In this document: piece after piece, positions 24,716 through 29,458 of the stretch
How positions within the stretch are numbered: position 1 is the stretch's first letter
Layout: each line of letters begins with the position of its first letter
IMG/VR virus record: IMGVR_UViG_2565956633_000004
Coordinates: 1-35,210 of that record
From: a virus
Taxonomy: Duplodnaviria; Heunggongvirae; Uroviricota; Caudoviricetes
Length of the DNA stretch: 35,210 nt
Direction: 5' to 3' (one strand)
The notes under the pieces: generated by a model
The model's input: the letters and a program-made list of their open reading frames with translations, nothing else
Databases searched by the model: none
Told to the model about the DNA's origin: nothing
Program-made: the position numbers and the translations under genes

Positions 24716-25209
24716 TAAGCCCCCACGTAATTCCCTGACAGATACCACTCATCACCCGATACAGCGCGCTTGCTGCTTTTCCGTAAACACTGCTCACGAC
24801 GCGCCAGAAAATTGTTTCGTTCTGGCTGGGAGTGGCTTTCACGGAATGCCGCCATCCACACCGTTGCAGCACGACGGTATAAGCCCCTGGACTCCAGTTC
24901 TTCCGCCTGGCGGGTCAGGCACAAAATCACCCGGGGATCGTTAGTGCCGACATAGAAATTGCGCACAGGTCTGGTTTCACGAACTGGTTGTGGTTCCGGA
25001 TCCTGCGCTCTCTCAGTCAGGCGCGGGAAATGTCTGTGTGTATCTCCTTCACAACGGTGAGCCACACGCCCACTCTGACGTAACTTGCTTGCTGACTGCA
25101 GAACGCGCTGCCGTGAGTAACCTGCAAAAGCATCCGCAATGTCTCCGGAAGTACAGCCCGGATGGGCTTCAATGAATTTCTGAACGTCATTCAAAAGACT
25201 CATAATCAC
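24715..25209 (-). CDS. Hypothetical protein, YfdN-like (164 aa)
   Basis: ATGA overlap with O-like gene; N-terminal winged-helix-like segment; same length and position as CPS-53 yfdN. Confidence 0.45.
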   Translation of the reverse strand: MIMSLLNDVQKFIEAHPGCTSGDIADAFAGYSRQRVLQSASKLRQSGRVAHRCEGDTHRHFPRLTERAQDPEPQPVRETRPVRNFYVGTNDPRVILCLTRQAEELESRGLYRRAATVWMAAFRESHSQPERNNFLARREQCLRKSSKRAVSGDEWYLSGNYVGA

Positions 25210-26147
25210 CCCCTGAATCCTGCCGGGATCTGGCTGTAGTCCACGTTGTCGTAACTGGATTTGAAGTACGGGTCTTCGCGTTTTTCGGTGTACGTGCTTA
25301 CGGACGGCGATAAGCGCAGGGAAAGCTCATCCCATTTTTCCCGCAGCTTCGACGGGCTGAGCACGTTACGGCACCAGAACGGATCGCGGCTGACGCGGCT
25401 GTACATCTCGCAGATTTGTTTGTGAGTACGACCATCCTGCACACACATCAGGCGAATTTCGTTTGCCCAGGCTGTCCAGTTCGGTTCTTTGGGACGAACC
25501 ACCTCGCCGTCACATTCGGCAGCCTGCTCGTACAGGGCGATGATTTTTTTCCAGAGCCACTGTGCGCAGGTCAAATCATCCTGCGTCCCCCACTGGCGTT
25601 TTTTAGGGCTGAATACAACCGCATCAGGATGGCGAGTTAAAAAATCCTGTTCAGCCGTCTGCGTGTCCGGTTGCGAAGCGTCCGGACGAGAAGGTTTTTT
25701 ATCTGATGGATCATGTTTTGATTTTACTGACGGATCCCCGCCAGATTCTGACGGGTGAAAACCCGCTTTTTTGCCAGATTTCGACGCATCAAATTTTGAC
25801 GGGTCAGATTTTGATGCGTCAGATTTTGACGGGTCAGAATCTGACAGTTGAGAAAATGCCGCTGCCTGAAGCTTCGCAACGTTAAGCTGATAAACATTCG
25901 ACGCATTGCGGTTACCCTGGCGACGCGCCTTACGCGTTAACCAGCCTTCTGCTTCCAGCCGTGCGATAGCCGTTCTGACGGTACTCATCCCCGCGCCAAT
26001 CTGGCGGGCAATGGTTTCAATTGATGGCCAGCACACACCTTCGTCATTACTGAAATCAGCCAGGCGTGCCATAATTGCCACGCTGGATAATTTCATGCCT
26101 GACGCTGCGCAACCATCCCATACATAGCCGGTTAATTTAGTGCTCAT
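25206..26147 (-). CDS. Replication initiation protein (O-like) carrying the origin iterons in its coding sequence
   Basis: 313 aa; N-terminal HTH-like region; central repetitive SDSDPSKSDASKSDPSKFDASKSG encoded by DNA iterons. Confidence 0.65.
   Translation of the reverse strand: MSTKLTGYVWDGCAASGMKLSSVAIMARLADFSNDEGVCWPSIETIARQIGAGMSTVRTAIARLEAEGWLTRKARRQGNRNASNVYQLNVAKLQAAAFSQLSDSDPSKSDASKSDPSKFDASKSGKKAGFHPSESGGDPSVKSKHDPSDKKPSRPDASQPDTQTAEQDFLTRHPDAVVFSPKKRQWGTQDDLTCAQWLWKKIIALYEQAAECDGEVVRPKEPNWTAWANEIRLMCVQDGRTHKQICEMYSRVSRDPFWCRNVLSPSKLREKWDELSLRLSPSVSTYTEKREDPYFKSSYDNVDYSQIPAGFRG
25741..25850. repeat. Origin iterons (about six ~17-18 bp direct repeats, CAGATTTTGACGGGT-like)
   Basis: Tandem repeats visible in the sequence: ccagattctgacgggtg / ccagatttcgacgcatc / aaattttgacgggtcag / attttgatgcgtcag / attttgacgggtcag / aatctgacagttg. 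Confidence 0.7.
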
Positions 26148-26495: not shown

Positions 26496-27043
26496 GCGTT
26501 AGTTTCTCCACAGTCACGACACGCCACGGCGCCCGGAGCTGCACACTCGCGGGCGTCACTACTTTCTGAAACGCAAAAGATTTTGTAGACCAGTGCTGCA
26601 TGCTCCTGCAGCTTCGAAATTGAGAGGTACAGCTCATCGTTAATTGCTGTCTTCTCATGCGGTTCCACTACACCGTCTTCAATTGCTGAACGAATCTGTT
26701 TTGAATAACTGCCGATCTGTTCAATGACCTCCAGCAGGCGTTGGTTGATATCGGCGTTGTCCACATCCTCGATGTCAGGAAGAGACACAAATACGCCATT
26801 TGCAGACTGCGCCACAGCATCAGCAATGAAGTGAGTGCCACCAGCACGCTGTAAAACCATTGCCCATCCCAGCGGGAAAATCTGATCGCCATCTGCACGA
26901 AGGCGGTTGAATAAAGCGTTTTCTGTTACATCGAGCCAATCAGCCGCTTCAGCGTAACCACCCGGCAACGCCGCGATAGTTTTTCTGACAGCTTTCACGT
27001 ACCACTCAGGCTGTTTTTCTATTTTCCAGTGATGCTTACCCAC
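26492..27043 (-). CDS. Putative CII-like / YdaT-family early regulator
   Basis: 183-aa ORF immediately after cro-like gene in the early-right operon; assignment by position and rough recollection only. Confidence 0.35.
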
Positions 27044-27296
27044 GGTTCACCTCCTGTTCCTGTGGTTTAAACCCATTCTGGTTTTGGCTAGATTGAAAAC
27101 GTGCCGGATAAAGAATCTGCATTTCGCTGATTTCACCCTTAAAAAAATTGGCTAAACGTTCTGCAAGCTCGATAGATGGAATCTGCTCCAGCCTCTCAAT
27201 ACGACTCAACGTCGCTGGATTGACTTGAACACCCGCAGCAACATGCTGCAAAGTGAAACCATGCGCCTTACGCACATTTCGTAATGGTGATTGCAT
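27036..27296 (-). CDS. Cro-like HTH repressor
   Basis: 86 aa, HTH (GFTLQHVAAGVQVNPATLSRIE); GGAGG RBS; divergent from cI across an operator-rich region. Confidence 0.65.
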   Translation of the reverse strand: MQSPLRNVRKAHGFTLQHVAAGVQVNPATLSRIERLEQIPSIELAERLANFFKGEISEMQILYPARFQSSQNQNGFKPQEQEVNRG

Positions 27297-27393: not shown

Positions 27394-28086
27394 ATGAACA
27401 TAGGAAAACGAGTCAGACAACTTCGCCAAGCGAAGAACATGAAAATCGCCGATCTCGCTGAAGCAATAGGAGTAGATGCGGCGAACATCTCGCGCTTAGA
27501 AACGGGTAAGCAGAAACAATTTACCGAACAAACACTGAGTAATATTGCCAAGAGCTTAGGTGTTGATATTGCTGATCTCTTTACCTCTGCCCTCAAAAGT
27601 AATACTGTATATAAAAACAGTAATGATGAGGATGTTGCGCAGGTGAAGGATGTGTTCCGTATTGAAATGTTGGATATCAGTGCCAGTGCGGGAAATGGCC
27701 TTATCCAGGGCGGTGATGTCATTGATGTGATTCATGCCATCGAATACAGAACTGATAATGCTGTATCAATGTTCGGCGGACGACCAGCCAATCACATCAA
27801 AGTTATCAACGTTCGTGGGGACAGTATGTGTCCAACCATTGAGCCAGGAGATCTCATCTTCGTTGATGTCAGCATCAATCAGTTTGATGGTGATGGTATA
27901 TATGTCTTTGGTTTTGATGACAAAATATACGTTAAAAGACTTCAAATGATTCCTGACAAACTGCTGGTGATTTCTGATAACCAGATTTACCGTGAATGGG
28001 GAATTACTAGCGAAAACGAACACCGATTCATGGTCTTTGGAAAGGTCTTAATCAGTCAGTCGCAAACCCTTAAGAGACATAATTAA
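27394..28086 (+). CDS. CI-type prophage repressor (HTH plus S24 LexA-like autopeptidase domain)
   Basis: 230 aa; N-terminal HTH (MKIADLAEAIGVDAANISRLETGK), C-terminal VRGDSMCPTIEPGDLIFVD...KIYVKRL S24 motifs. Confidence 0.9.
   Translation: MNIGKRVRQLRQAKNMKIADLAEAIGVDAANISRLETGKQKQFTEQTLSNIAKSLGVDIADLFTSALKSNTVYKNSNDEDVAQVKDVFRIEMLDISASAGNGLIQGGDVIDVIHAIEYRTDNAVSMFGGRPANHIKVINVRGDSMCPTIEPGDLIFVDVSINQFDGDGIYVFGFDDKIYVKRLQMIPDKLLVISDNQIYREWGITSENEHRFMVFGKVLISQSQTLKRHN
27603..27622. promoter_or_regulatory. Near-consensus LexA (SOS) box inside the cI coding sequence
   Basis: TACTGTATATAAAAACAGTA, a CTGT-N8-ACAG palindrome with TA flanks; differs from the E. coli consensus TACTGTATATATATACAGTA only in the central AT tract. 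Confidence 0.4.
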
Positions 28087-28103
28087 CTTCAATATCCCAT
28101 CCA

Positions 28104-28128
28104 TCGGCCACCGAAAGGTGGCTTTTTA
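28104..28128 (+). terminator. Rho-independent terminator after cI
   Basis: GCCACC-GAAA-GGTGGC hairpin followed by TTTTTAT, 20 nt after the cI stop. Confidence 0.7.
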
Positions 28129-28140
28129 TCACCCATAATT

Positions 28141-28200
28141 TTGCACATCTCGCAAAATATTACTTGCGTATATCGCATTTTAATTTTATCTTTTGTTCCA
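28141..28200 (+). promoter_or_regulatory. Candidate early-left promoter/operator (pL/oL analog)
   Basis: TTGCAC ... CGCAAAATATTACTTGCGTATATCGCAT: the same CGCAA/TTGCG half-sites as in the cI-cro intergenic region. Confidence 0.45.
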
Positions 28201-28370
28201 GACCAACTACAGGATTACAACAAAATCTAGTTGCAACACGGTGCATGGTGCATGTGTCGTAAGCGGTCAGTAAATGTCAAAAACGAACAGTCAGGACGAC
28301 CACGAAGTAGCCGCCGGTGGCGTATGAATGACCGGATGATTCGTTAAATACTATGTGTAAGAGAGCGCAA

Positions 28371-28574
28371 ATGAACCGTTATTTCACATGCTCGTTTTGT
28401 GGCGCAAACGAGCTGCAGGCAAAAAAAATCATCGCCAAAGGCGGAAAAGATGAAGTTGCTATCTGCTCTGAGTGCGTAGTCTTGTGTGTAGGGGCATTAA
28501 TCAATATCAGCACAACTATTCAGTTCACACCAAATGAGAATGCGCCTTTAGATGCGCGGAAATCTGGAGGTTAA
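28371..28574 (+). CDS. Small ClpX N-terminal zinc-binding-domain-like protein (first early-left gene)
   Basis: MNRYFTCSFCGANELQAKKIIAKGGKDEVAICSECVVLC: CSFCG...K-I-A-G...ICxECVxLC parallels the ClpX C4 zinc-binding domain; no AAA+ module. Confidence 0.55.
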   Translation: MNRYFTCSFCGANELQAKKIIAKGGKDEVAICSECVVLCVGALINISTTIQFTPNENAPLDARKSGG

Positions 28575-28582
28575 AGAACAAA

Positions 28583-28858
28583 ATGAAAGTCCAGATTTTA
28601 AACAATAGTGGTGAAGTCGTTTGGTCATACGACATAGCCGCTCCTGTAGATCAGAGCGGCGATAGCTGGACCAATGGGAAACATCAGATTATGGCTGGAG
28701 TTGTATTCTCTTTACGCCGTGCTTTGGAACAGGCTGAAGTATTTCCATCAGACCCTGAATGGAAATGGCCTTTTTCTATTTGTCCAAATTCGGAGAGCAC
28801 ATTTCAGAAAATTGGTCAGAAAGTCGCACTCGAAGAGCATCAGCCAACTGTTTCCTGA
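28583..28858 (+). CDS. Hypothetical Trp-rich small protein
   Basis: 91-aa ORF 8 nt after the ClpX-ZBD-like stop; GGAGG upstream; 3' end overlaps a convergent ORF. Confidence 0.35.
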   Translation: MKVQILNNSGEVVWSYDIAAPVDQSGDSWTNGKHQIMAGVVFSLRRALEQAEVFPSDPEWKWPFSICPNSESTFQKIGQKVALEEHQPTVS

Positions 28859-29021
28859 TTTTTTCAGGTAACTCGTCGGCATCGCAGAAACAACAACGCT
28901 CGATCATGTTGAAAGCCGATTCGTAGAACTGTTTCTGCTGAGTGTCGCTGAGACAGGAAAAGAGCGACGTTACGATGATTTTATTAATTGCATTATCAAG
29001 TTCTTTTTCATCAAAAGTCAT
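28776..29021 (-). CDS. Hypothetical small protein, convergent to early-left operon
   Basis: 81-aa ORF with AAGGA RBS 9 nt upstream; AT-rich. Confidence 0.35.
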   Translation of the reverse strand: MTFDEKELDNAINKIIVTSLFSCLSDTQQKQFYESAFNMIERCCFCDADELPEKIRKQLADALRVRLSDQFSEMCSPNLDK

Positions 29022-29039: not shown

Positions 29040-29458
29040 ATACGGGCTTAAAAGGATACCACCGAGCCTGAAGTGGTGAAAAGACAGGCACATAACAGCT
29101 AAGTATTTTCAACCAGAGAGAATCCTTAGCGTTGTGGTGAATGCGGCTCAGCGCACGCGGGTTAAGGTTGAGGCTGACAGTCGACCTTCTGTGGATACCC
29201 ACCCGCCTGGTGTGCAACCTTCGCCAGGCACCGGGAGGCACCCGGCACCACAACTTTATGCTGTGTGTAGTCTTGGCGGTACCTGCTTGTACCCTTGCTT
29301 CCGGCTGGTACCGTCCTTTTTACAAAACAGAGAAGAGCATCACCGGACGACGGGCTCATAACCCAATCCATCCGGGCGGCAGTCACCGCAGGTGTTCTTC
29401 TCTGTTTTGTGGAGAAACTAACCGACCTTGCAGGGTCGATATGATGAGGAGCAGCAAA
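29040..29458. other. GC-rich, highly structured non-coding region (candidate ncRNA or regulatory leader)
   Basis: No credible ORF (overlapping frames give Arg/Cys-rich junk); nested dyads including a ~19-bp stem (29322-29344 pairing with 29391-29410) enclosing a 46-nt loop, CCGGG-AGGCA-CCCGG, two GGTACC-containing repeats. Confidence 0.4.

Follow-up and report, generated by a model that had tools for sequence, protein, structure and literature searches.

A standalone ClpX-type zinc-binding domain encoded behind the repressor of an N-less lambdoid prophage, and the structured leader RNA that precedes it

The zinc-binding domain (ZBD) at the N-terminus of ClpX is a docking hub for adaptors and many substrates. 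According to one report, lambda O is not degraded without the ZBD, and a single hydrophobic surface of the domain, around F16/I46, is used in common by lambda O, SspB, RssB and trigger factor (PMC7804408); another describes F16, A29 and Y34 as important for the binding of SspB to ClpX (PMC3064785, citing Thibault 2006). The isolated ClpX ZBD, added separately, inhibits the breakdown of sigma-S that RssB mediates (PMC7226468). Phages are also known to block host AAA+ proteases, as is the case for T4 PinA, T7 gp4.5 and lambda RexB (PMC10286901). PinA and gp4.5 inhibit Lon, and RexB acts on the ClpP-dependent degradation of lambda O, Phd and MazE; for these small phage proteins it has been proposed or shown that they blunt ATP-dependent proteolysis in the host and so protect phage proteins or prevent toxin-antitoxin activation. 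Here we analyze a gene at 28371..28574 (+) of IMG/VR record IMGVR_UViG_2565956633_000004, a stretch of 35,210 nucleotides referred to as the window, together with the leader RNA upstream of it. The gene encodes a 67-amino-acid protein that profile searches and a predicted fold identify as a standalone ClpX-type C4 ZBD. The window is a lambdoid prophage of the SfV/SfII/mEp460/ST64B/CPS-53 type, a phage group without an N gene (PMC3851460; PMC12315714).

The first-pass annotation of this DNA, made from its letters alone, had likened the protein to the ClpX ZBD, and the profile searches bear this out. The protein (MNRYFTCSFCGANELQAKKIIAKGGKDEVAICSECVVLCVGALINISTTIQFTPNENAPLDARKSGG; 67 codons and a stop, with ATG at 28371 and TAA at 28572-28574) matched Pfam PF06689 (zf-C4_ClpX) with 41.4 bits (E 1.3e-10, profile positions 2-34 of 39), above the curated gathering cutoff of 27 bits, and BLASTP against the N-terminus of E. 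coli ClpX gave 43% identity over 37 amino acids (E 8e-9). When a family profile of 27 sequences was run against the PDB, it retrieved ClpX N-domain chains only (E 8e-17 to 5e-14), the next match having an E of 0.01. The zinc ligands, CxxC...CxxC (C7, C10, C32, C35), are invariant across the 27 family members, and the spacing between the cysteine pairs, 21 residues in the phage protein versus 18 in ClpX, reflects a 3-residue insertion in the phage ZBD. The coordinates of the open reading frame (ORF), the length of 67 amino acids and the protein segments quoted in the annotation were all exact, and the E. coli ClpX string that it had given is correct, as seen in the HMMER alignment to PDB 2ds5/1ovx. 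Its statement that the protein carries no AAA+ ATPase likewise stands: the NCBIfam ClpX equivalogs NF003745 and TIGR00382 scored only 25.8 and 22.7 bits versus cutoffs of 359 and 371, the match being confined to the N-terminal ~40 positions.

A structure prediction of the protein on its own, which had been proposed as a check, agreed with the profile searches. The AlphaFold2 model computed from 27 sequences had a predicted local distance difference test (pLDDT) score of 75 overall and of 78-94 over residues 1-50, and laid out a beta-hairpin followed by a helix (residues 33-52), with a folded core of approximately residues 1-50; the C-terminal ~17 residues had low model confidence and are variable in sequence. 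In a Foldseek comparison with the PDB, the best seven matches were all ClpX (probability 0.99-1.00) and the eighth had a probability of 0.21. Six of the seven were the ZBD crystal chains 2DS5-2DS8 (template modelling score 0.81-0.85 to target, root-mean-square deviation (rmsd) 1.4-1.6 Å), and the seventh was the full-length ClpX-ClpP model 9a5x (rmsd 1.7 Å). An earlier AlphaFold model, computed from 8 sequences (pLDDT 63), yielded the same Foldseek picture. With the ClpX ZBD the phage protein shares the four-cysteine zinc site, the beta-hairpin plus C-terminal helix, the CSFCG and ICxEC motifs, the hydrophobic core and the equivalents of F16 and A29. It differs in having no AAA+ unfoldase and in being phage-encoded and repressor-controlled. 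On the combined ground of profile matches and modelled fold, we consider its identification as a free-standing ClpX N-terminal ZBD without the AAA+ motor confirmed.

The domain call itself is not new, since RefSeq/PGAP already names the protein 'ClpX C4-type zinc finger protein' (WP_001083098.1) and it has a public PHROG entry (phrog_5259, E 2e-31), the family being listed in PHROGs as of unknown function. A search of the literature on standalone or orphan ClpX zinc fingers and on phage anti-ClpX proteins found nothing relevant, and no family among the PADLOC defence-system profiles matched the protein at E<=0.1. Neither PinA and gp4.5 nor RexB is related to it in sequence or fold. RexB, like the ZBD gene, is encoded beside cI; however, RexB belongs to the cI operon and is upstream of oL, and the ZBD gene is found downstream of the terminator and operators. 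Compared with PinA, gp4.5 and RexB, the mode of action that we propose below would be distinct, namely mimicry of the protease's own docking domain.

We take ATG 28371 as the start codon because all homologues begin with MN(R/S/N)Y and because a Shine-Dalgarno-like AAGAGAG, read from the sequence at 28359..28365 (+), lies 5 nucleotides 5' of it, with AGGAG at the same spacing in homologous loci. An upstream in-frame ATG at 28353 was rejected, being without a ribosome-binding site. The domain is under purifying selection: over 42 domain codons of six divergent copies, the proportion of synonymous differences (pS) was 0.48-1.0, so that synonymous sites are saturated, the corresponding nonsynonymous proportion (pN) was 0.12-0.30, and dN/dS was 0.14-0.25 where computable. 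In the family alignments, conservation extends over residues 1-46, and the C-terminal tails of different loci are unrelated, which argues that the functional unit is the zinc domain with its helix.

The setting of the gene is that of an early-left operon. Upstream, on the same strand, lies a cI-type repressor gene (27394..28086 (+); Pfam Peptidase_S24 6e-19, HTH_3 1e-11), followed at 28106..28123 (+) by the cI intrinsic terminator (GGCCACCGAAAGGTGGC and then a T run), which was found by a terminator scan and is annotated as a terminator in SfII. A putative oL/pL region follows at 28126..28192 (+), in which the operator-like half-sites TTATCACCCA (28126) and ATTTTGCACA (28138), within 28126-28147, are recurrences of motifs found in the operator region between cro and cI (repeat families D2 and D8). 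The best pL candidate, TTGCGT-17-TATCTT at 28164-28192, has 7 of 12 consensus positions in a relaxed promoter scan; promoter scans pinned down no good consensus pL in the window, and near-consensus promoters are present at the equivalent place in the related loci L010-L012. A leader of ~230 nucleotides separates the operator region from the ZBD gene, which is the first real ORF after cI and its terminator. The terminator and the operator-like repeats are in keeping with the position that the first-pass annotation had assigned to the gene, and the ZBD gene is positioned for transcription from a repressor-controlled early-left promoter, as its first gene.

This arrangement recurs. In all enterobacterial loci with enough flank, the ZBD gene lies 118-285 nucleotides downstream of a repressor with helix-turn-helix (HTH) and Peptidase_S24 domains, on the same strand; the adjacency holds in five distinct locus types (loci L003-L011) and persists despite differing cro genes (HTH_3 or P22_Cro), replication genes and downstream genes (YfdP/DUF2303, RdgC, ParB-like). 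The gene itself behaves as a cassette. In an alignment with SfII, cI, the terminator, the operators and the leader are near-identical up to ~28347; a block of ~200 nucleotides that is almost exactly the ZBD ORF is then found in the window only, and identity resumes at ATGAAAGTCCAG (28583), the start of the next gene, orf91. From this pairwise alignment, the approximate limits of the cassette missing from SfII are 28347..28582 (+). Among 119 viral contigs with the leader RNA described below, the first ORF downstream encodes a ZBD protein with the CxxC...CxxC pattern in only 17-19, and the remaining ~85% have unrelated small ORFs in this slot, the orf91 family included. Across L014-L133, the slot is a hotspot at which alternative small genes are found (a 68-amino-acid MHKTEPKIV... 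family, the families of orf91 and of the ZBD, and many singletons), which points to a pool of accessory early genes for host takeover or anti-defence. A close homologue occurs in only four GenBank phage records; carriage is far commoner in Salmonella than in E. coli, one 112-amino-acid variant being listed in more than 13,000 blocks of a sequence collection. The absence from SfII, the variable slot and the patchy carriage indicate an accessory (moron-like) early gene rather than a core regulator.

An exhaustive search showed the nearest relatives to be short orphan ZBD proteins or proteins with 2-4 tandem ZBDs, full-length ClpX first appearing at E~1e-5; the lineage is therefore an old one, not something taken from host clpX in recent times. 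The orphan and tandem ZBD proteins (RefSeq 'ClpX C4-type zinc finger protein'; PHROG 5259, 20296, 12435 and 6797) belong to the same family and are short, without an ATPase. Compared with the other orphan ZBDs, however, the enterobacterial subfamily has an AKGGKDE insertion and an invariant alanine at the position of Tyr34, and is fixed as the first gene after cI. In a Mu-like transposable prophage (L136, 3425-4198), the HTH repressor at the end of the element is followed on its own strand, after 75 nucleotides, by a distant orphan ZBD of 65 amino acids, which is probably co-transcribed with that repressor; the Mu repressor and MuA are classical ClpX clients. Another orphan ZBD is located in the rightward early operon of a different temperate phage, further ones occur within runs of small phage-like genes, and BFVD holds a few standalone ZBDs, all uncharacterised. 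Many relatives (P0016, P0018, P0027 and others) have 2-4 tandem ClpX-type zinc fingers, and one of 2,505 amino acids has 22 matched stretches; none of the tandem-finger relatives has an ATPase of ClpX length. A copy on an E. coli plasmid (P0008) has lost the first CxxC, with TCPLLVAKTSRRQ instead of TCSFCGANELQAK and the rest conserved, and this allele is probably frameshifted and inactive, judging from its sequence.

Between the promoter region and the ZBD gene, we identified a structured leader RNA of 74 nucleotides (28278..28351 (+)). It corresponds to an element of ~65 nucleotides common to loci with unrelated operators and placed just 5' of the first early-left gene. The predicted structure consists of the stems P1 (28283-28287/28340-28344), P1a (28290-28292/28298-28300) and P2 (28312-28318/28331-28335 plus 28337-28338), and the core between the stems, AGGCAGGACGCCCACGAAGUAGCCG, is invariant. 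More than 120 IMG/VR contigs contain an exact copy of a 16-nucleotide core, CCACGAAGTAGCCGCC. The core is present, too, in phages infecting Escherichia, Salmonella (ST64B), Shigella (SfII, SfIV, SfV), Pectobacterium (ZF40), Yersinia and Pantoea, as well as Klebsiella, Citrobacter, Aeromonas and Providencia, nearly always unannotated. The leader RNA always lies just after a cI-type repressor, and in several loci it starts within ~10-20 nucleotides of the predicted transcript start. In a covariation test on a 44-sequence alignment, with 500 shuffles and with controls in which partner columns were slid by 1-3, 95% of cells in the two proposed stems were paired, and 7 of 10 pairs changed on both sides (121 cells); the covariation score was 0.689 versus 0.165 in the shuffles, none of the 500 reaching 0.689, and did not exceed 0.133 in the slid controls. 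RNAalifold independently recovered P2 and the small hairpin P1a, and the window's own P1a carries a compensatory G-C to U-A change. The covariance model found one copy in the window (28278-28351, 90.1 bits) and none elsewhere in it. Each related locus likewise had a single copy, without exception in the leader; in ZF40 the RNA scored 88.7 bits, ~100 nucleotides after cI. Rfam contained no match to the leader RNA at E<=5.

Two other interpretations of the conserved leader were set aside. A small arginine-rich ORF with a TTG start (28231-28347) was rejected because its upstream part is unconserved and both stems covary as RNA. The minimum-free-energy fold of the single sequence (z -1.1) contains a CCAC/GUGG stem that is broken in SfII, and was replaced by the covariation-supported structure. 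The closest described counterpart of the leader RNA is put of HK022: both are structured RNAs of ~70 nucleotides at the early-left transcript start of an N-less lambdoid phage. However, put consists of two long stems, arranged as a V with a triplex, and has paired L and R copies, whereas the leader RNA has a closing stem that encloses two hairpins and is present in the window as a single copy, with no rightward one. Homology to put was not found: across 16.9 kb of HK022, a span that covers the immunity region, the covariance model gave no match (best E 0.8, for a fragment). A put-like mechanism has been surmised by authors who study these phages, with no element named (PMC12315714). We regard the leader RNA as a candidate cis-acting antiterminator for N-less lambdoid phages, and it may prove a more novel object than the ZBD gene. 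As a side observation, one half of a 16-nucleotide inverted repeat (28098-28113 and 28315-28330, 81% complementary) covers the left arm of the cI terminator together with its 5' flank, and the other half falls in the stem and loop of P2; the repeat would be relevant only on a transcript that reads through from cI, and may be due to chance.

As to the role of the protein, we propose that it is an accessory early protein of this N-less lambdoid prophage that acts as a free ClpX ZBD decoy, a reading to which we assign a probability of roughly 45%. Once cI repression is lifted, the ZBD protein would accumulate, fold around one zinc ion and probably dimerise as the ClpX ZBD does. The free domain would then compete with the N-domain dimers, three in each hexamer of host ClpX, for docking adaptors or N-domain-dependent substrates, slowing the ClpXP degradation or remodelling of docked proteins and leaving N-domain-independent substrates untouched; as the first product of a strong early promoter, it could plausibly outnumber the N-domains of cellular ClpX. 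Likely beneficiaries would be unstable phage proteins, for example the O-like initiator, or those antitoxins whose removal by ClpXP sets off abortive defence. What makes a decoy plausible is that the purified ClpX ZBD inhibits adaptor-mediated degradation in vitro; the phage ZBD probably interferes with host ClpXP degradation. The need of lambda O for the ZBD, the docking surface common to several ligands and the recurrence of standalone ZBDs in other phage early regions also speak for this reading.

Several observations weigh against the decoy reading, among them the state of the docking surface, which we mapped by HMMER alignment to ClpX and checked against the family alignments. F16 and A29 of ClpX correspond to F9 and A22 of the phage ZBD, both invariant, and the hydrophobic positions L27, I28, I35, L42 and I47 are retained in the family. 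Y34, which is reported to have a part in SspB binding, is replaced by an invariant alanine (A30), I46 corresponds to A42, which varies (A/T/V/I), and a family-specific 3-residue insertion occupies the hairpin adjoining the Tyr34 position (KGGKDE versus GPS). Hence only two of the four docking residues are kept (F16 and A29, not Y34 and I46), and SspB-like docking cannot be assumed. The suggestion of the first-pass annotation that adaptors such as SspB are titrated is in this respect weakened: the retained F16 and A29 equivalents speak for it, the Tyr34 to Ala replacement, the adjacent insertion and the variable I46 position against it, and specific SspB titration is not supported by the sequence. 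Furthermore, the protein is only ~40% identical to the ZBD of E. coli ClpX and closer to other orphan ZBDs; the gene is found in just 131 of 5,426 complete E. coli genomes (2.4%); and it is dispensable for this phage type, SfII being without it and the slot being variable. Finally, the type of replication initiator varies among ZBD carriers, which argues against a fixed phage client, and a fixed link of the gene to one initiator type was accordingly rejected. Because of the Tyr34 to Ala replacement, the 3-residue insertion and a more hydrophobic helix (VVLCVGALINI versus VDLCNDIIREE in ClpX), the set of ligands probably differs from the one that host ClpX binds, or is narrower. Most likely, to judge from these residues, the protein acts on the ClpX N-domain network with such an altered range.

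A partner outside the ClpXP system is nevertheless a serious alternative. It is possible, if less than probable, that a ClpX-type finger has been re-purposed as a small protein-binding module for a partner unrelated to ClpXP, for instance a different protein of the host or the phage, its likeness to ClpX reflecting shared fold ancestry. The altered pocket (Y34A, the insertion, the variable I46 position), the unusually hydrophobic helix, the deep divergence from host ClpX with orphan or 2-4x tandem ZBDs as the nearest relatives, and the variable accessory slot typical of host-takeover or anti-defence genes would all fit such a change of partner; yet every characterised PF06689 member is a ClpX N-domain, two of the three SspB-contact residues are retained along with the hydrophobic core, and the gene recurs beside the repressors of lambdoid and Mu-like phages, whose switches involve ClpX clients. 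The first-pass annotation had also raised the idea of mixed dimers. A poison subunit, which would disable N-domain function directly by forming mixed dimers with ClpX N-domains or by docking on the ClpX ring, appears improbable to us. The ClpX ZBD dimer is constitutive, so that subunit exchange would need co-translational capture, which counts against this explanation, as do the identity of only ~40% and a helix face that differs at the equivalents of D41, N44, D45, I46 and R48. In its favor, the phage family conserves the positions of the hydrophobic core, and the ClpX ZBD is a dimerisation domain according to the title of Wojtyra 2003.

The remaining explanation starts from the statement that the gene sits where lambda carries N. 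A functional counterpart of N, that is, an early regulator or antiterminator acting on the leader RNA or RNA polymerase, could be sought in the first early-left gene of a phage group without N (PMC3851460; PMC12315714), particularly with a structured RNA just upstream. The statement is misleading, however, because SfII has the same leader without the gene and the slot is filled by unrelated ORFs in ~85% of contigs. The RNA and the gene are independent of each other, the RNA occurring alone in SfII and ZF40 and the gene alone in L010 and L011, and this, together with the variable slot, argues that the ZBD protein is not the N counterpart. Moreover, the protein has no arginine-rich motif, its fold matches the ClpX ZBD only, and boxA is missing: no lambda-type boxA was found in the leader (28124-28370), and the nut families of Rfam had no match in the window, in agreement with the earlier report of no boxA/boxB nut site, as far as lambda-type sites are concerned. 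We therefore regard a role as N counterpart as very improbable, and for any N- or nut-like role the leader RNA is the better candidate.

On the other side of cI, a cro-like gene lies at 27036-27296 (-). Downstream of the ZBD gene, orf91 (28583..28858 (+); 91 amino acids; phrog_3195, match 8e-64) has its start 9 nucleotides beyond the ZBD stop, with GGAGG in front of it. The orf91 family is the first gene after the leader in other phages; orf91 as an obligate partner of the ZBD gene was rejected, as it is missing downstream in Salmonella loci and in L007-L011. Convergent with it is orf81 (28776-29021 (-); phrog_3311). The two overlap by 83 nucleotides, and each matches its PHROG family over the full length; PGAP annotates only the minus-strand orf81, the orf91 remnant of SfII comprises 15 codons (22 from an upstream in-frame ATG), and one of the pair may be a shadow ORF. 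An O-like replication initiator gene (25206-26147 (-)) encodes a protein that begins with MSTKLTG and has a lambda-O-like C-terminal half. We take this start to resemble the N-terminal ClpX-recognition class exemplified by lambda O (TNTAKI) and Dps (STAKLV).

Beyond orf91/orf81 lie a non-coding block, then yfdP, yfdQ (DUF2303), yfdR and other genes in the direction of the integrase end. The block (~29055-29440) is conserved, being 98-99% identical to SfII, and PGAP labels the region 'frameshifted hypothetical protein'. A scan of the whole window at the Rfam gathering thresholds gave no match; below threshold, STnc100 (RF02076), a prophage small RNA family related to PasD (bioRxiv 10.64898/2026.05.13.724894), matched over its full length at 29101-29324 (+), with 43.5 bits versus a gathering score of 47 (E 9e-8). 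The block also contains a long inverted repeat, ACAAAACAGAGAAGA...TCTTCTCTGTTTTGT (~29322-29412).

For the large N-less ST64B/SfV/LLS class of phages, the leader RNA provides a concrete candidate for their unexplained early antitermination. ClpXP controls how stable replication initiators, repressor fragments, antitoxins, tagged translation products and the stress sigma factor are, and with a free copy of its docking hub a phage would have a simple, selective means of altering host degradation during infection. If the decoy reading is true, domain mimicry would join the few anti-protease strategies of phages represented by PinA, gp4.5 and RexB. The protein would also offer a natural, evolution-tuned ZBD variant for dissecting adaptor specificity. 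More tentatively still, and with some doubt on our part, standalone ClpX N-domains may constitute a widespread and unrecognised class of phage early proteins that reprogram ClpXP by mimicking its docking domain and sequestering adaptors or N-domain-dependent substrates. In that case phage proteins would be stabilised, or toxin activation triggered by ClpXP would be prevented, and no earlier case would exist of a bacterial AAA+ protease disabled by a virus through domain mimicry.

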